Assembly: GCF_054482525.1 (NCBI RefSeq) | Contig: NZ_CM137006.1 | Length of the DNA stretch: 64,000 nucleotides | Direction: 5' to 3' (one strand) | In this document: piece after piece, positions 2,952 through 41,785 of the stretch | How the letters are laid out: the number at the start of each line of letters is the position of its first letter | Numbering within the stretch: position 1 is the first letter of the stretch | Translations under genes and position numbers: made by a program | Notes under the pieces: generated by a model | Told to the model about the DNA's origin: nothing | Database searches by the model: none | The model's input: the letters and a program-made list of their open reading frames with translations, nothing else

Positions 2952-4204
2952 ATGCCAGCACCGGCACTGTACGATATAAACATCCGGTACCGGGGATACG
3001 AATGGAATGACGAATACGCCAGAAAAGGGATAACAACCTTCCTCATAATGGTGAAATCATTCGCTATCGGTTACACGGTACGCGATGTCGCCAAAGGCAG
3101 CTGGATCGACGAATCCACGGTCACGCTACCGAAAGCGCCGCCGCTTAACACCCTGCCTCGGGCGACCAAAGTGCCGGAGCCGCAGCCGCCGCAGGAAGAT
3201 TACACCTTTGAAGGTTACCGCAACGCCGACGGCAGCGTGGGCACCAAAAACCTGTTGGGTATTACCACCAGCGTGCACTGCATGGCAGACGTTGAGGACT
3301 ACGTGGTTAAAATTATCGAACGCGACCTGCTGCCGAAATACCTGAGCATCGACGGCGTGGTCGACTTGAACCACCTCTACGGCTGTGGCGTAGCGATTAA
3401 TGTACCGGCCGCCGTGGTGCCAATTCGCACCATCCATAATATTGCGCTGAACCCAAACTTCGGTGGCGAAGTGATGGTGGTGGGCATGCAGTGCGGTGGC
3501 AGCGACGCGTTCTCCGGCGTTACCACTAACCCCGCGCTGTCGGCTACGACTCTGACCTGCTGGTGCGCTGCGGCGCAACGGTGATGTTCTCCGAAGTCAC
3601 TGAAGTACGCGACGCCATTCATCTGTTAACGCCACGCGCCATCAATGAAGAAGTGGGCAGGCGTCTGCTCGAAGAGATGGCCTGATACGATAACTATCCC
3701 GATATGGGCAAAACCGACCGCAGCGCCAACCCTTCGCCGGGCAACAAAAAGGGCGGCCTCGCCAACGTGGTAAAGAAAGCACTCGGCTCCATTGCTAAAT
3801 CGGGTAAAACCGCAATTGTTGAAGTGCTGTCGCCCGGTCAACACCCGACTAAACGCGGATTAATTTACGCCGCGACGCCAGCCAGCGATTTTGTCTGTGG
3901 CACGCAACAGGTGGCTTCGGGTATCACCGTGCAAGTGTTTACGACCGGCCGTGGTACGCCGTACGGCCTGATGGAGGTACCCGTCATTAAAATGGCGACC
4001 CGCACCGGGCTGGCGAACCACTGGTTTGATTTAATGGATATTAACGCAGGCACTATCGCTACCGGCGAAGAAACCATTGAAGAGGTGGGCTGGAAGTTGT
4101 TCCACTTTATTCTCGACGTCGCCAGCGGGAAGAAGAAAACCCTCTCGGATCAATGGGGATTGCATAACCAACTGGCAGTGTTTAACCCGGCACCGGTGGC
4201 CTGA
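2952..4204 (+). pseudogene. UxaA/GarD-family sugar-acid dehydratase (altronate/galactarate dehydratase-like), frameshifted and 5'-truncated
   Basis: Two ORF-track pieces (2952..3584, 3704..4204) and an intervening segment in a third frame together read as one dehydratase homolog; the second piece ends ...[25 protein letters not shown], typical of this family; N-terminal about 50 aa absent. Confidence 0.6.
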
Positions 4205-30813: not shown

Positions 30814-31497
30814 TTATATCATTTAGTTAATTAGTCTTTATTTTTCATTATGTTGCAAATAACAAGCCCGTCAAAAACAGTGATATTAACTACACCATTA
30901 ACTACACCGCTTCACGAACAATATCGAACAACCGCGAACAAAGATCAACACGCTTTAATCATTATCATTTTCCGGCTATCCGTCATGAAGCTGGTGGATG
31001 ATCTGCGTGGTGATTTCCACCATTCAGAGCAGGGGCGGTCATCATGACCATGCCATAACAAAAACCCCATATTCGTGGTTTTTCTGTGTCGGGGCTATTC
31101 TGCTGTTGCCGTGCTGGTGGATATTCTCCGGTATGCGGCTCCCCATATCGGCATCAGGCCCACCAGCGTGAAGCGTTTTTCATTTTTCGCGGGTATAAAA
31201 AATCGATGGGGCTGGCAGTCCTGAAGACGTCAGGGTACGGAGATTTGACCCGCCCCTCCCTGTGCATGAGCACAATAAGTAACCGAAGGCGGAATTCCGC
31301 CCTCGGTACTTACATATGAGAAACGATATTTCTTCCACCGATACCCTTTATTTGGGTATTGCGAGTAAGCCCCAAAATCTGGGTGTTACTCTTACTACCC
31401 AAACTACGGGTAGTTTCCGTAGTTTCATGGTCGAGTTGCAAATCTGCAACTCACCCACCAGCCAACGCAATTTTGCGTTATCGGGAATATCAGCAAG

Positions 31498-32270: not shown

Positions 32271-32523
32271 CGCTCCAGAATGTTTTAAACATGCATCTTG
32301 CGAACAACTTTCAGAAGAGGTCAAAAAATGCGCTATATGTTGAGCATAAAACAAGCAAAATTAACATGCCAAAAATAAAAATACTTAAAATTCAATACAA
32401 TATGAAGATGATGATGACGAATGAAAATGCAAAAACTAGCCTTTTTCCGCGCCGCTCCCGCCCCGTGGCAGACCACTCCACCGGGAGGACCCGTAAAAAA
32501 GGCGGCTGTCGCCGCCCTTGTTG

Positions 32524-34643: not shown

Positions 34644-35066
34644 AGTAACTTCCTCTTACTGACTAAACTGCGCGCATTATTGATCGATAAAAGTGGTAGA
34701 TAAACATATTTCTATCATAAAAATAGATTAATCAGATTCAGACACAAAAAAGCCGGAGAGAATCCGGCATAAATATCCCGCCATCTGAACACGTTTTGCA
34801 CAGGCAACTCCATCTGGCAGGTGAAAAACAAATTTATTTATATATTTCAATTAATTGCAAACTGGTCTAATGACAGGGAGAAAAAAATATTGTACAGGTG
34901 AAAACAGAAATAACTTTTAATTATCAATAAATTACTACACATGCTGCCGCCGCCATGAAAATGCAAAAACCAGCCTTTTTCCGCGACGCTCCCGCCCCGT
35001 GGCAGGTCACTACACCGGGAGGACCCATAAAAAAGCCGGATTGCTCCGGCTTCTGTTACTCGTTGC

Positions 35067-35782: not shown

Positions 35783-36005
35783 CTGTTCACCTTTTGATAT
35801 TTTATCTTTTAATTCATAATGTTAAGGGGTGAACAGTTTCACAAAAACTATTCACCAACTGTTCACCACTGTTCACCCTTGAAGCTCAATAAACAATCAA
35901 AAAGGTGAACAGTGAATAGTTTGGTGAACAGTTCATAAATAACTGTTCACCCTATAACATACTGATACAAAAGATATTTATGACAGGGTGAACAGTGGTG
36001 AACAG
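35783..36005. repeat. iteron cluster, putative replication origin (9 copies of GTGAACAG/CTGTTCAC)
   Basis: 8-mer copies at 35783, 35829, 35859, 35869, 35905, 35924, 35943, 35988, 35998 in both orientations within an AT-rich tract immediately downstream of the primase gene. Confidence 0.6.
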
Positions 36006-36018
36006 TTATTCCATAAGT

Positions 36019-37851
36019 TTAATTTTTGCTATCGTCATTAGTGACCGATACACATGATGGCATCCAGTCTTCTGATTCCTCCGTCAGTGTCACGTTTGAA
36101 CGCAAACCGTGCTTCGTTTTCCGTTTCATATACTCCCTGCCATATTCCGCCATTGCCCCCGGCATATCTTTACCGAAGCGCGTCAGTGTTACAGGTTTAC
36201 CAAACCCATGTGCCCTCATATAAGCCAGATAGGCATGATAGAGATACCTGCGTGGGCTGAATGGCACAATTTCAGCATTACCCACTAACAGGCCATCACA
36301 CATTACCGACGCCATGAGATAGCCGCAGAAGTCCACCAGCGAATCACCTTCACGCTTTATCGCGAGTGCTTCTTCTGATTTCTGCTGCTCATATAAAAGG
36401 CGTCTGGCTTCGTCCTGGTCAGCAAACCGTGTAAGCAGATGGCGAATCACTACCGCCAGCTCACCTTCTATTTTTTCCGCCAGCATTGGATCACGTTCGT
36501 TCTCCGGTACAACTTCCGAAAAATTGAATATCACCCGACGACGTGAGATCCCCCCGCTGCGGTCACTGAATGACATGGCGTTATTGTTAACCGCCAGCAC
36601 TACTGCCGGAATACGCGTTGAGTAGGGGGCTTTGTGTTTCGGGTCAATTGCCACCTTGTCACCGCCTGTAATAGCCTTAATCCCTGCCCCATCACCAGCG
36701 TAGCGGGTCATATCCGGCATGATAATCAGCGAAAAGCCAACCACTAACGCGCGTTCCCTTGCATCTTCCAGCGCCTTCATGCTTGCCGATACTGTGTTGG
36801 CCTTACCCGCCAGCATGGTGCAAATCTCCGCCATCACGCTTTTACCACTTCCCCCTGGACCTGTTACCTCAATGAATAACTGCCAGTCGTACCGGTTCGC
36901 CAGCACCATGAATAATGCAGCCAGTACGCGATCCGCCTTGCGGTCATTCTCAGCCACCGAACGGCGTAACCACTTCCAGAAATTCGGCGCATGTGTTGCC
37001 AGCGTTTCCCCCTCTGCTGGTGGGCTGAAAGGTAATTCACTGGCAATTAACAACCAGTCGTTTTTGTTATGCTCCCGAAAATTACCTGTTCTGGTATCAA
37101 ATACCCCGTTACTGAATCCAATCAGGTTACGGGCTGTATTCCCCATTACAGGCAAACTTAACTTCATGGTATCGACCGCCGATTTAATGGCGTTCTGCGA
37201 ATAGCTGATCTCCGCATCAATGAAAATCTGTGCCATAGCTCGCTGTAATTCTTTATCCTGTACTGGCTCCCATACAACGCCGTTGTAATGGTGAACAGTG
37301 TCAGAGTCAGCATGAATCGCCAGTTCACCGCCATAATGTGCCAGGAGAACTTCGCCGCGTTGACTTGCTCCCATCTGGTTAAGCGCCAGTGATGAAGCGT
37401 TATCGTCTTTTACCCGCTCTTTTTTCTTTACAGGCAGTTCAACTACCTTTTTCTTTTCCGCCAGCTCTGCCCGTTCACGTTCCAGATATTCGCGCCAGTT
37501 CTCCCGTTTCTGGCTGTGCATTCCTTCAGGGTAATAATCAGCATCCCTGACACCTGCCGCTGCCAGTTTCTGCCCGATGGTATTAACAAGCCCCGGACGC
37601 AATAACCCCGCCTGATAGAGACGCACGCGATAGCGTCCGTCCGGTACGATTTGCAGGTTGTCCAGTTCGGCAAGTTGTTGCTCTCCAAGCCAGACAGGTG
37701 GCACGTTATCGCCAGCCAGTCGCCCGTCCTGTTCCTGCCACTGATTCGCATGTGCCCACGCATCACTACCCGCAAAAATGATGACTTCCGTCATTTTGTC
37801 ACGCGGCTGGTGTTTTAAATTTGGCGCTTTTTTCATTTCTGCTCTCTCCAC
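36019..37851 (-). CDS. primase / replication initiator (Pri-Rep-like, P-loop NTPase)
   Basis: 610-aa ORF; P-loop GPGGSGKS; overall resemblance to P4 alpha / PICI Pri-Rep proteins (primase C-terminal plus D5-like NTPase). Confidence 0.7.
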   Translation of the reverse strand: MERAEMKKAPNLKHQPRDKMTEVIIFAGSDAWAHANQWQEQDGRLAGDNVPPVWLGEQQLAELDNLQIVPDGRYRVRLYQAGLLRPGLVNTIGQKLAAAGVRDADYYPEGMHSQKRENWREYLERERAELAEKKKVVELPVKKKERVKDDNASSLALNQMGASQRGEVLLAHYGGELAIHADSDTVHHYNGVVWEPVQDKELQRAMAQIFIDAEISYSQNAIKSAVDTMKLSLPVMGNTARNLIGFSNGVFDTRTGNFREHNKNDWLLIASELPFSPPAEGETLATHAPNFWKWLRRSVAENDRKADRVLAALFMVLANRYDWQLFIEVTGPGGSGKSVMAEICTMLAGKANTVSASMKALEDARERALVVGFSLIIMPDMTRYAGDGAGIKAITGGDKVAIDPKHKAPYSTRIPAVVLAVNNNAMSFSDRSGGISRRRVIFNFSEVVPENERDPMLAEKIEGELAVVIRHLLTRFADQDEARRLLYEQQKSEEALAIKREGDSLVDFCGYLMASVMCDGLLVGNAEIVPFSPRRYLYHAYLAYMRAHGFGKPVTLTRFGKDMPGAMAEYGREYMKRKTKHGLRSNVTLTEESEDWMPSCVSVTNDDSKN

Positions 37852-38138: not shown

Positions 38139-38459
38139 TTATCCCCGATTTGAATCAGTATTCGCTTTCTTTATGGCATTTAATGCATCTGTGGCATTTT
38201 CAATGGTGCACCGTAACGAAATATCAAACTGCCCAAGCATTGCCAGTAACAAACCGATATTACCCATATCAATGCGCATAGCCTTTTCGTCATAGTCCTC
38301 ATTTTCTGACGCATGCCACATCAGGCTACCAATTGACGCAATACCCATTGATATATTGTCAGTAGCCCCATCCGCAGCGGAATAAACCTTTTTAGCAATA
38401 TCATGCTCACAGTTAAAATGCGGATTAATCAGGTACTGGTAATTTGACATATCAGGCAT
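38139..38459 (-). CDS. hypothetical protein (about 106 aa, [10 protein letters not shown]...)
   Basis: C-terminal part of ORF 38139..38894 from an internal ATG; the upstream part of that ORF is Pro/Arg-rich and looks like an off-frame artefact. Confidence 0.4.
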
Positions 38460-38991
38460 GGCACACCCCCTGGCGAATACGGGCGGCGAATACAGCAACA
38501 CAACCGGACGGGCAGCGGTTACGCGCTTCACGTTCCGTCCAGGCGGTGACGTGGATGATTTGATGGTCTGACGCGCCAAAGATGATAAAGCGCCAGAGAA
38601 AGGCGGTTTGAGAATGTACAAGGGTAGGGATAGTAGCCATGTTGGCAGCCTCCTTTGACAGTGAAGAATTTCCACCGCAGGAAACGCCAATTTCGCTGGC
38701 GGTGGACTGAACGGGGTTGGCGTAACCGGCGTCAAAGGGAACCGGCGCTTCCGAAGAAGCCCCCGCCCAGCCCACCATAACTTTGATGTGAGCGAATGCG
38801 GACGATAAAAAAGACGCTGGCGCGTCATATATCGCCTTTGACATTTCCAGGACGCCAATCCCGGCACCAGATTTTGCTGGTGCGGATAAATCATAGCCCT
38901 GGCTTGCAGTGGCGATCAACTGGTTTTTTACACCCGCTTTATTCAGGTTGTGCGAGTCCCGCCCTTGCGGGTGTGTGGTATGATTTCTCAT
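38452..38991 (-). CDS. hypothetical protein(s); contains an internal SD-preceded start (MATIPTLV... at 38640) that may define a separate 62-aa gene
   Basis: 3' part of ORF 38452..39741; AAGGAGG precedes the ATG at 38640; the N-terminal 250 codons of the 429-aa ORF overlap the operator region and plus-strand genes and are treated as spurious. Confidence 0.3.
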
Positions 38992-39088
38992 AGCGACCTC
39001 GATACTATCGTTATCGTTGGTGGTTAGAAGCCCCGTTACTGCTCCAACAGTGCGGGGTTTCGTCGTTTCTGCACCTTGCATCAACAAG

Positions 39089-39140
39089 GTGTTGAACACC
39101 AATGTAAACTCAGGTGTTGAACACGTCAAGTGTTGAACAC
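39089..39140. promoter_or_regulatory. three perfect 11-bp palindromic repeats GTGTTGAACAC (putative operator sites) in a divergent promoter region
   Basis: Copies at 39089-39099, 39114-39124, 39130-39140, between the minus-strand gene block and the plus-strand small gene at 39191. Confidence 0.55.
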
Positions 39141-39190
39141 TTGTTTTTTTTCCTGCATACTGCATTTGTTTTTTGTGAGGGGTACACAAC

Positions 39191-39370
39191 ATGGCGACAA
39201 AAGCAGTAAACGCAAAATCACAAACAGTTGCGGCAAGGGTTCCGCATGAAGTTATGAACAATGTTGAGGCGGTAAAAATGCCTGGTGAAAGTACAGGGCA
39301 ATTTGTAACAGCAGCATTAAAGCGAGAAGTTGAATACCGCCAGCGACGCAAGGCTAAAGAGCAAGAATAA
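39191..39370 (+). CDS. small basic protein (59 aa), putative DNA-binding regulator
   Basis: My translation [59 protein letters not shown]; GAGGGG before the ATG; below the ORF-track size cutoff. Confidence 0.45.
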
Positions 39371-39427
39371 TCACTATCAGCGCTGTGGTGTGAGGTACTC
39401 CGGCGCATTGCTTTACAGGTCGGCACT

Positions 39428-39637
39428 ATGAGCAAAAAATACCTATCCACTGAAGAGATTTTCGCAGAACAACGAAGATTGCTTTTACAGAGCATTGTTG
39501 CACGCCAGAAAGAAAAGGCACACGCTAAACAAATGCCACCAAATACAGAACCAGCGCCTACAAAATTTGCGCTTGATGAGTTTCTCAATAAACAGCCCCG
39601 GGTAATGAAAGCTAACAGGAACCGCCCACCAGGCTGA
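39428..39637 (+). CDS. hypothetical small protein (69 aa)
   Basis: ORF-track entry; weak ribosome-binding site; uncertain. Confidence 0.3.
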
Positions 39638-39751
39638 TCACATTGCCCACCAGCCAGCAAATCGCTATGATGGCTGGGCTTATGTTTAGTGTATTCCCAC
39701 TGGCGACCTCTGATCCGGGTCGCCTTTGTTTTATGTGTCATATGCCCCCCT

Positions 39752-39961
39752 TTACGCTGCCTTGCCTGAATTAATGCGATCCCGGCTTTTAACCCATTCC
39801 ATAACCTCGGACAGCAGCCAACCTACAGAACGACCGCCCAGATTACGGCGTGACGGGAAATTCCCTTTTTTCTCCAGTTCATAGCGTGTAGTGCGACACA
39901 CTCCAGTTAACTTACGACATTCATCCTCACGGATTACGCGATCTTCATTTATTTCACGCAT
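39752..39961 (-). CDS. alpA: AlpA-family transcriptional regulator / excisionase-like
   Basis: 69-aa [60 protein letters not shown]; AlpA-type HTH. Confidence 0.65.
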
Positions 39962-40380: not shown

Positions 40381-41619
40381 TCAAGAATTTTGGGTGTAAA
40401 TTCGCGGGGTCATAACAACGATTTTTTTATCATTGTTCTGGAGAAGCTCGAGACGGTCTACCCATAGATTAAGAGCATCACGTTTTGCATCAAGATAACG
40501 GGAGTGGTTATAGACTCGTTGCATCCCCGGCATCTGGTGGGCGGTAAGCTGCTCGACAATATGCGGATCCACGCCTAAATCGTTCAGCATGGTTGTAAAT
40601 GTGTGCCGGATATCGTGTAACGTCCAGGGGGCTTGATTAATTCGTCTGTGCGCTGTTCTTCCGTACTCTGCTACCGAAGATTGTCCTTTCAGTTCACCAA
40701 GCAATAAGCCTGTGTGTCTGTTCTGCTCCACCAGTTGCGTGACGAACGGCAAAATGCTTTCCGGTATTGGCCTGAATATGGCGACCTTCGTTTTGCTGTG
40801 CTCCTTCGGTACTGTCCAGAGCATTTCTTTAAAATCCCACTCCTGCACCTCAGAGCGCCTTAGCTCAGTGGTACGGCATCCAAAAACAATCAGGAGGCGA
40901 ATTAGGGCGCTGTAGTATGGCGGGAATATTTTGTCATCCAGGGCGCGGAGTAATTCCCCAAGCTCCTTATTTGTTAGTACGCGCTCGCTCACTTCTGCTT
41001 TTTTTCCCACATCACCGACAACCATATCATCAAGAACGTTGCTGATTGCGTATCGTCGTTTTCGGCAGTACTTAAGCGCCTGTTTGCATACCTGTAGCAA
41101 AAATCCGGCAGATACTGGGCTTCGCTTTGCCATCTGGTCAAAACATGCCAACCAGTGCCGTAGCTCGCATTTTTCCAACGGCAAAGCGCCAATCTGGCTG
41201 ATTATGTGTTTATTGATCCGGCTTTTCAGTGATTCGTAGTCAGTGCGCTTTTCCTTTGCATACGATTCAAGCCAGTAAGTGAGCGCTTCCTTAACTGTCA
41301 CGGGGGCTAACGCATCCTGTACAGCACGATTAAGCTCATAGCGCGGATTTTTCCCCTCAGCCAGCCAGGCGCGACACTGTGCTGCTTTTTCCCTGGCTGC
41401 TTTCAGGCTCAGATCGGGATAATTGCCCAGTCTCAGACGTTCCGGTGATACCTGCCTACCAGTTCCGGCCCTGTAAGTGAAATACCAGGTTAACAGGCCG
41501 CTGGTGGAATGTCTTACGCTAAGATTGCCACCGTCATTAAAAAAGGCGTTTTTTGTGGTTGGTGATCCGCTTAATTTTCGTAAAAGAGTGTCGCTAAGTC
41601 TATGAATTGCGCTGCTCAT
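40381..41619 (-). CDS. int: tyrosine site-specific integrase
   Basis: 412-aa ORF with phage-integrase catalytic region (...LHDIRHTFTTMLNDLGVDPHIVEQLTAHQMPGMQRVYNHSRYL); adjacent to the right att repeat. Confidence 0.85.
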   Translation of the reverse strand: MSSAIHRLSDTLLRKLSGSPTTKNAFFNDGGNLSVRHSTSGLLTWYFTYRAGTGRQVSPERLRLGNYPDLSLKAAREKAAQCRAWLAEGKNPRYELNRAVQDALAPVTVKEALTYWLESYAKEKRTDYESLKSRINKHIISQIGALPLEKCELRHWLACFDQMAKRSPVSAGFLLQVCKQALKYCRKRRYAISNVLDDMVVGDVGKKAEVSERVLTNKELGELLRALDDKIFPPYYSALIRLLIVFGCRTTELRRSEVQEWDFKEMLWTVPKEHSKTKVAIFRPIPESILPFVTQLVEQNRHTGLLLGELKGQSSVAEYGRTAHRRINQAPWTLHDIRHTFTTMLNDLGVDPHIVEQLTAHQMPGMQRVYNHSRYLDAKRDALNLWVDRLELLQNNDKKIVVMTPRIYTQNS

Positions 41620-41785
41620 GTTTCGCGTTTCCGGTCATCAAAATTAACTACACCATTGACTACACCGTGCATCGTACAAGGGCAAACCGTGACGAACAAG
41701 AGCGAACAAGGAAAACAAAATTTTCCTTTATAATCATAGCGATGAATGCACACAAAACACTACCACGAACACCCGCGAACACTAG

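Follow-up and report, generated by a model that had tools for sequence, protein, structure and literature searches.

A candidate ribbon-helix-helix repressor and its putative 11-bp operators at the head of the replication operon of an Escherichia coli satellite island

The 64,000-nucleotide stretch analyzed here (the window; contig NZ_CM137006.1, RefSeq assembly GCF_054482525.1) contains a phage satellite island of about 10.8 kb, inserted in an E. coli chromosome between clpS and cspD/macAB. The divergent control region of the island carries three copies of an 11-bp palindrome, GTGTTGAACAC, named O1, O2 and O3, next to a plus-strand gene for a 59-residue protein of the YlcI/YnfO family. The favored reading, to which we assign a probability of about three in four, is that O1-O3 are operators of this adjacent protein, a ribbon-helix-helix (RHH) repressor that would silence the leftward replication operon and autoregulate its own gene. 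An RHH dimer would sit on each GTG-N5-CAC site, the invariant Arg16 and the N-terminal arm reading the outer GTG/CAC and the variable residues 12 and 14 reading the variable center. With the sites occupied, RNA polymerase would be blocked at the leftward promoter PL and the leftward operon would stay silent: the leader, an Ash/Icd-like open reading frame (ORF) with the isrK and C4 RNAs, and the genes for a DUF4222 protein, a primase-helicase and a single-stranded DNA-binding protein (SSB), and probably the capsid genes. Binding at O3 would give negative autoregulation of the RHH gene. Upon helper infection the repression might be lifted by an anti-repressor or by antisense read-through from alpA.

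The preliminary description of this DNA reported three identical 11-bp palindromes. The exact copies lie at 39089-39099 (O1), 39114-39124 (O2) and 39130-39140 (O3), and there are no others on either strand of the window. The expected count is 0.05, based on 100 dinucleotide-preserving shuffles of which the largest gave 1 and none gave 3. Each copy is a 5+1+5 inverted repeat with arms GTGTT and AACAC around a single central base, at which the reverse complement, GTGTTCAACAC, differs. Flanking bases lengthen the symmetry to GGTGTTGAACACC at site 1 and CAAGTGTTGAACACTTG at site 3. The center-to-center distances are 25 bp and then 16 bp. A generic repeat-versus-shuffle test in 100-nt segments, which has low power, reached the observed count of the window in 7 of 40 shuffles when two mismatches were allowed, and two related loci (L033 and L034) were not significant in it. 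Three perfect copies are a minority state; the commonest site 2 among 44 close relatives in IMG/VR is GTGTTAAACAC, and the central base of O2 tolerates G or A in relatives.

The three sites overlap two divergent promoters. PL (minus strand, 39101-39129; 9/12 in a promoter scan) consists of a -35 element TTGACG (39129-39124), a 17-nt spacer and a -10 element TACATT (39106-39101), with a predicted start at about 39094, the center of O1. O2 lies within the PL spacer and abuts the PL -35, and O3 is just upstream of that -35. The rightward promoter PR (plus strand, 39133-39161; 8/12, below the scan threshold) has its -35 element TTGAAC (39133-39138) inside O3, followed by a 17-nt spacer with a T8 tract (39144-39151) and a -10 element CATACT (39156-39161). 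The T/A tract, which on the opposite strand directly precedes the PL -35 on its upstream side, may be UP-element-like. This layout, with two sites over PL and the third over the PR -35, indicates repression of PL and negative autoregulation at PR. RNA polymerase exclusion by the RHH repressor CopG is a precedent (PMC2724298).

Elements of both promoters recur in relatives. In 18 of 20 class representatives the top-scoring minus-strand promoter falls where PL does, its -35 starting at -62 and its -10 ending at -90/-91 relative to the start codon of the RHH gene. Most classes have the PR -10 (TATACT/CATACT) at a set position, about -36. Within the window's class, the GTCAA of the PL -35 is 99% conserved and the PR -10 is 100% conserved; the within-class footprint is informative only for these two elements, since two exact copies of the site were the condition for retrieving the contigs.

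The 59-residue ORF (39191-39370, plus strand) is present as the preliminary description stated, and its size, just under the default 60-residue cut-off, explains its absence from the ORF list. It starts 50 bp to the right of the sites, has a Shine-Dalgarno sequence GAGGGG 8 nt upstream, and encodes a basic protein with 11 K/R versus 7 E. The sites do separate it from the leftward block, which begins at 38991. Residues 9-50 match the NCBIfam family NF041551 (YlcI/YnfO) with 59.7 bits against a cut-off of 30, phrog_949 matches over the full length (E = 4.7e-22), and the Prokaryotic Genome Annotation Pipeline (PGAP) labels the identical protein as YlcI/YnfO family. The AlphaFold2 monomer (mean predicted local distance difference test score, pLDDT, 84) has an extended segment at residues 1-18, a helix at 19-28, a turn G32-E-S-T35 and a helix at 35-58. 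A single-chain dimer model (pLDDT about 90) gives a strand at 10-18 and helices at 19-28 and 35-59 in both copies. The predicted order of β-strand, helix, turn G-x-S/T/N and helix over about 45-50 residues is that of RHH proteins, the model is like solved RHH structures, and one UniRef homologue is named "CopG-like ribbon-helix-helix". A Foldseek search with the model gave no significant result, no Pfam RHH family (RHH_1, Arc, MetJ, CopG and similar) matched at E ≤ 0.1, the only match being a spurious sub-threshold one to Med10, and no PDB sequence relative was found at E ≤ 10. The protein models as an RHH DNA-binding regulator, and the reading of DNA by its β-ribbon is indirectly supported by the co-variation of β-strand and site described next.

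The comparison set of about 40 loci comprised 32, one genome per species, found purely by protein similarity, together with E. coli loci. A common scaffold, counted from the start codon of the RHH gene, runs through the relatives: a site at about -100, a minus-strand TAnnnT box, a site at -77 to -67, GTCAA at -66, a T-rich tract, TATACT/CATACT at about -36 and a further site at -32. The homologous position of O1 (-102/-99) holds a class-specific site in nearly all relatives, and that of O2 is fixed in all classes. Every site fits (G/C)TG-N5-CA(C/G), and the central 5 bp vary by subgroup together with the N-terminal strand of the protein. At least 12 strand/site classes were distinguished. The window's class pairs the strand QT[VIL]AAR with the site center TTGAA. 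Elsewhere [KR]KLEAR goes with TCAGC, QSLKSR with TGGYC, QKIHAR with GTTCC, QKLQ[AT]R with GACTC, both KRFDVR and QKTSVR with TCGGA, QKMSAR with GCACC, QS[VL]TAR with CTTAC, QLTTVR with AAACA and AQKKIR with TACCCC, and there are other pairings besides. The preliminary description held that lack of conservation of the motif in related elements would speak against an operator array; the motif is kept in relatives of the same class, and class-specific motifs occupy the same positions in the other classes.

Operator and gene are adjacent and co-inherited except in chimeras, so that the co-variation is partly phylogenetic linkage; for this reason three sharper comparisons were made. A natural chimera, P0027 (loci L039 and L040), has a C-terminal half of the window type and a window-like left flank, but its strand is QSVTAR, and its sites are switched at the same positions to GTGTAAGACAC, GTGTCTTACAC and TGTCTTACACC. 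Thus specificity maps to the N-terminal half of the protein, as would be expected from the role of RHH β-strands in setting DNA specificity (PMC3413123). Across genera, KKLEAR proteins whose helices have diverged, from E. coli on the one hand and Xenorhabdus/Pectobacterium on the other, share the GTGTCAGCCAC sites. With respect to neighboring genes, identical protein-site pairs occur beside AlpAs of 21-29% identity and beside D5 primase, DUF927 or AAA_25 replication proteins, and the window and L039 have AlpAs that are 100% identical and sites that are different. The operator therefore co-varies with the recognition element independently of the other genes. In three loci (L010, L035 and L039) site 1 is inverted relative to site 2 with its position unchanged, as expected for a symmetric dimer.

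The sites also turn over. O3 is limited to the TTGAA class (the window, L001, L005 and most IMG/VR relatives), and other classes have in its place a site at -32 over the PR -10/+1. Within the window's class, site 3 is lost in some relatives and site 4 is lost in the window lineage, and deeper relatives carry both; the fourth site, catacTGTTGAACACC, is seen over the rightward -10/+1 at -32 in L002, L005 and L055, where the window equivalent is 39162-39172. It therefore seems that either the -35 site or the +1 site alone is enough for autoregulation.

Taken together, the overlap of the sites with core elements of both promoters and their co-variation with the part of the protein that appears to set specificity support the operator array proposed in the preliminary description. 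Of its two suggestions for the small protein, repressor or anti-repressor, the former is favored. Its term "element master repressor" goes further than the evidence in the word "master": the element also carries AlpA and the isrK/C4 RNA system, the latter with its own promoter downstream of PL.

Several observations weigh against the operator-repressor reading, which throughout rests on what can be deduced from sequence. The spacings of 25 and 16 bp exceed the 7-13 bp typical of cooperative RHH arrays, which makes cooperativity and stoichiometry uncertain. The PR -35 is weak in most classes, and the site over the PR start that is common elsewhere has been lost from the window. The relation of residues to bases is not clean: L007 (K12/S14) and L019 (R12/D14) both have TCGGA centers, and L023, also K12/S14, has GCACC. 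A simple two-residue (12/14) recognition code was therefore not upheld. The partial linkage between gene and operator noted above belongs here as well. Finally, the model phage-inducible chromosomal island (PICI) of E. coli EDL933 (L037, beside pepT/roxA) is without a YlcI-like gene; the module is not universal and belongs to a subset of satellites.

The other readings differ mainly in what would bind the sites. By analogy with P4, whose origin lies in a divergent control region between vis and sid, O1-O3 could be replication-origin iterons for a primase-helicase that is 50.7% identical to P4 alpha, and the minus-strand form GTGTTCAACAC matches the P4 iteron TGTTCACC at 6 of 8 positions. However, nine exact copies of TGTTCACC lie at 35784-36004 below the primase gene, like P4 crr, and none in 38992-39190; this cluster is found with four different classes of site (window, L010, L019 and L029), other loci share the sites of the window without the cluster, and identical sites stand beside D5 primase, DUF927 or AAA_25 helicases. 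With the true array elsewhere and independent of site class, the origin reading was rejected as largely refuted, and its probability is negligible. AlpA, a known activator of PICI operons (PMC6092414) encoded 400 bp away, might instead be the binder, or another element protein such as the 69-residue product of the downstream gene or the Ash/Icd-like protein; this is very improbable. Identical AlpAs in the window and L039 go with different sites, and the same sites in L039/L040 and in L041-44 go with AlpAs only 21-29% identical, and on these identity matrices AlpA was rejected as the specific binder. The gene for the 69-residue product is not conserved in the family, and in the P0027 chimera the left flank and the start of the Ash/Icd-like ORF stay window-like while the sites switch.

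A target for a host or helper-phage factor, or a DNA or RNA hairpin such as site 3 with the T8 tract acting like a terminator, would make the RHH gene incidental. A terminator scan does flag CAAGTGTTGAACACTTG with T8, and also GGTGTTCAACACC, and all classes keep the outer GTG/CAC unchanged, as recognition by one shared host factor might demand; but the class-specific centers follow the adjacent β-strand, chimera included, the T tract is kept in relatives without site 3 and is thus not a terminator tail, and the potential hairpins are AT-rich with stems of 5-7 bp. As for a helper-phage factor, 48 of the 49 viral contigs with the array carry the module itself and are not phages. This possibility is accordingly given little credence. 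The RHH protein might also bind the sites without silencing the island, as an antitoxin that regulates its own gene and is paired with a toxin from the downstream gene, as an activator or as a Cro-like early regulator. That downstream gene varies from locus to locus and is missing from some (L002 and L019), it matched no toxin family in Pfam, PHROG or NCBIfam, the conserved partner is the leftward replication operon and not the downstream gene, and sites over the spacer and start of the divergent promoter have a repressing geometry. These roles are disfavored and considered unlikely.

A repressor at PL would act upstream of a second control system. The first leftward ORF (38452-38991, minus strand, 179 residues) joins an "Ash" N-terminal part (Pfam Phage_ASH, 1e-18) to an Icd-like C-terminus (NCBIfam, residues 131-174) and is 32% identical to the P4 "cI" ORF (E = 2e-7). 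It hosts a second leftward promoter (38890-38919, minus strand; TTGATC, 18 nt, TATGAT; scan 9/12), equivalent to P4 PLE and with its -10 aligned to the PLE -10, that ends about 6 nt before an isrK-type RNA (38807-38883, minus strand; Rfam RF01394, 75.1 bits against a gathering score of 50), a relative of P4 seqA. Downstream lies a C4 antisense RNA (38695-38782, minus strand; Rfam RF01695, 82 bits against a gathering score of 45, E = 2.9e-15), a relative of P4 CI RNA; the c4-a1b1 profile scores 43.8 bits, just below its gathering score of 46.7. isrK/C4 have been equated with seqA/CI (PMC10111431). The region aligns with P4 PLE/seqA and, with C4 and isrK below a PLE-type promoter, is an antisense-RNA immunity region of the P4/P1 immI type. 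The Phage_ASH match (residues 34-127) overlaps the isrK and C4 genes; thus either this stretch codes for both protein and RNA, or the protein family owes part of its conservation to the RNAs. PL is about 210 nt upstream of this immunity region, the position of P4's PLL. From there, the RHH protein would gate the upstream translated transcript and the RNA system would handle transcripts from the inner promoter. C4/isrK was rejected as a general partner of the module: none of 19 relatives reached the gathering score, and in these the promoter runs straight into a small icd-like gene and the replication genes. The RHH module can therefore stand alone.

The leader of the leftward transcript contains, bordering O1, a terminator-like hairpin with a T-rich tail (39027-39072, plus strand; -21.9 kcal/mol, z = -3.66). 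Of its 13 pairs, 11 show compensatory changes among 19 loci, and the G-U pairs are valid only on the plus strand. No Rfam family matches the hairpin. In all classes a TAnnnT box is found 42-43 nt upstream of it; the window copy is TGGTATGAT (38976-38984). Together the two suggest a cis-antisense RNA of about 75 nt that would span both the ribosome-binding site and the start codon of the leftward gene, which is unproven because the box overlaps conserved first codons.

The island as a whole is bounded by att-type direct repeats, ATTAACTACACCATT(A/G)ACTACACCG, at 30885-30909 and 41643-41667. Its minus strand encodes a tyrosine integrase (40381-41619; Pfam Phage_integrase and Arm-DNA-bind_3), an AlpA-family regulator (39752-39961; Phage_AlpA, 2.9e-16), the Ash/Icd-like ORF, a 106-residue protein, a DUF4222 protein, a D5-type primase-helicase, SSB, a ClpP-protease/major-capsid fusion and a DUF1441 protein. 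The primase-helicase (36019-37851; D5_N, DUF5906, Pox_D5) is the main cargo of the leftward operon, and its 50.7% identity to P4 alpha refers to residues 150-600. The only plus-strand genes are the RHH gene and a co-transcribed gene for a 69-residue protein (39428-39637), both convergent with alpA; the latter has no Pfam, PHROG or NCBIfam match, and the downstream gene differs or is absent in relatives. An intrinsic terminator (39702-39734, plus strand; 8-bp stem with 6 GC pairs, tail TTTGTTTTAT) ends this rightward operon before alpA. The nine P4 type-1 iterons at 35784-36004, against 1.87 expected in the whole window, stand in both orientations in AT-rich DNA directly downstream of the primase gene and are likely the island's origin/crr equivalent. 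With int, AlpA, a primase/SSB zone, a captured-phage late zone and flanking direct repeats, the island is of the Gram-negative PICI type, whose members measure about 10-15 kb, and it matches the integration, "Bro"/immunity, replication and late zones described for such satellites (PMC10111431). The core set of P4-like satellites comprises alpha, epsilon, int, alpA, delta, sid and psu. Of these, the genes for capsid size and late control, sid, delta and psu, were not seen among the ORFs of at least 50 residues in 30.7-34.6 kb, a check that fell short of an exhaustive profile search.

A 94-nt direct repeat (32421-32514 and 34955-35048, 88% identical) flanks on both sides a gene for a 69-residue protein and the gene for the protease-capsid fusion. 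It may have arisen by duplication of a regulatory or terminator element, or be a scar left by recombination when the capsid module was captured. In E. coli CREC-629 (L095, NZ_CP024815.1) tandem copies of a related island occupy the clpS site, with 6 matches in the record. Its late module has a separate major capsid, a decoration protein and a terminase small subunit, where the window has the protease-capsid fusion; the late zone is thus mosaic. The EDL933 island has int, an AlpA-type HTH protein, and Icd-like, DUF4222, DUF927 primase, SSB and PerC genes, with a leftward ORF of 247 residues in the position of the YlcI-like gene.

The exact class of the window is present in 488 of 5,426 complete E. 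coli genomes (9%). Other classes occur in Escherichia, Salmonella, Klebsiella, Pectobacterium, Xenorhabdus, Proteus, Yersinia and other genera, and the module is also found in the capsid-encoding satellite vB_KppS-Ant, recorded as an "induced prophage". Some loci carry 101-residue YlcI-like variants (L033, 1751-2056; L034, from 1751; L035, 1752-2057) with a helical C-terminal extension of about 40 residues and the same RRKAKE tail at the end; the extension is possibly an oligomerization or partner-binding domain. In L041 the first module is followed by a second, unrelated Arc-like small gene (3185-3364; …FQFRLDPDLREKM…), accompanied by a further copy of the hairpin and by upstream repeats of its own, tgtgtgtaatgtgtatatacacataaacacatta. 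RHH control cassettes can therefore stack in tandem.

RHH repressor/operator modules are already known as a kind, and the closest in logic is that of phage P22. In P22 immI the operators of the small RHH repressors Mnt and Arc lie over the spacer and start sites of the back-to-back promoters Pmnt and Pant. The repressor gene is transcribed from one of these and an antirepressor-type operon from the other, and there is negative autoregulation. The island would share with P22 the RHH operators over the spacer and start of divergent promoters and the autoregulation, but there is no detectable sequence similarity, the island protein belonging to YlcI/YnfO and not to Arc/Mnt. It would use one protein on three (elsewhere three or four) 11-bp GTG-N5-CAC sites 16-25 bp apart, and the operon it controls would be the Icd/primase replication operon of a satellite. 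CopG of pMV158, omega of pSM19035 and ParG differ in sequence family and genetic context, and have contiguous sites of 7-13 bp in contrast to 11-bp sites at 16-25 bp.

The likeness to the immunity regions of P4 and P1 (immI; c4 RNA, icd, ant) lies in the PLE-like promoter, the isrK/seqA-like and C4/CI-like RNAs and the Icd-like ORF, and that to P4 also in the alpha-like primase, the crr-like TGTTCACC iterons and a second promoter upstream of the immunity RNAs like PLL. P4, however, has no YlcI-like gene and no GTG-N5-CAC sites at PLE, its upstream promoter is under Delta and Vis rather than a divergent RHH protein, and the island carries the protease-capsid fusion instead of the sid/delta/psu late region. 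With the master repressors of Gram-positive islands, Stl of the Staphylococcus aureus pathogenicity islands (SaPIs) and Rpr of PICIs, the module shares a divergent regulator at the head of a satellite replication operon and a proposed role in quiescence until a helper phage is active, but Stl and Rpr are larger, helix-turn-helix proteins.

The K-12 proteins YlcI (DLP12) and YnfO (Qin) belong to the same NCBIfam family and share the RHH-like signature IRFP...NFSAWV, but these namesakes lie beside nohD/cos in lambdoid prophages. K-12 ylcI (L094, 10252-10446), divergent from nohD (terminase small subunit) and near cos in DLP12, has no GTG-N5-CAC array upstream and was dropped as a model for this reason. 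Lambdoid prophages thus carry distant paralogues of the proposed satellite repressor, which hint at possible cross-talk with helper prophages. The preliminary description had proposed a look for the same palindrome in helper phages, with cross-regulation in mind; no copy of the array was found there. Of 49 IMG/VR contigs with the tandem motif, 48 are the satellite module and the remaining one, L046, is unrelated. Likewise a tblastn search of 50,697 phage records with the 59-residue protein found nothing at 1e-3, and up to E = 10 only the satellite-like vB_KppS-Ant.

The comparison also brings to light annotation errors of a systematic kind: some records lack the small gene, and the adjoining ORF is over-extended across the operators. 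In public records PGAP stretches the "Icd-like" ORF over the operators to the start of the YlcI-like gene, and in L034 and vB_KppS-Ant a long ORF on the opposite strand is annotated in place of the small RHH gene. The window has a similar spurious open frame of 429 residues (38452-39741, minus strand), and the loci with such problems include L095 (8053-8793), L034 (1351-2763) and L038 (8578-9552).

The literature searched, which left most subscription journals outside its coverage, yielded neither a functional study of YlcI/YnfO nor a description of an RHH repressor in PICI or P4-like satellites. AlpA activates PICI operons, and the global repressor of Gram-negative PICIs has been reported as unclear (PMC6092414). 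The RHH gene with its GTG-N5-CAC operators might, more tentatively and with the balance tilting against it, be a portable "immunity cassette" whose repressor keeps many Gram-negative satellites, a large subset that takes in P4-like, PICI and capsid-encoding types, quiescent; it would come in a dozen or more interchangeable specificity classes that set cross-repression between islands, and helper phages would switch it off. The analysis would assign a likely function to the YlcI/YnfO family, and the at least 12 natural protein-operator pairs could be used for studies of RHH specificity or as orthogonal repressors. For the satellites themselves, a 59-residue protein and three 11-bp sites heading the replication operon provide a concrete candidate for the repressor of Gram-negative satellites.

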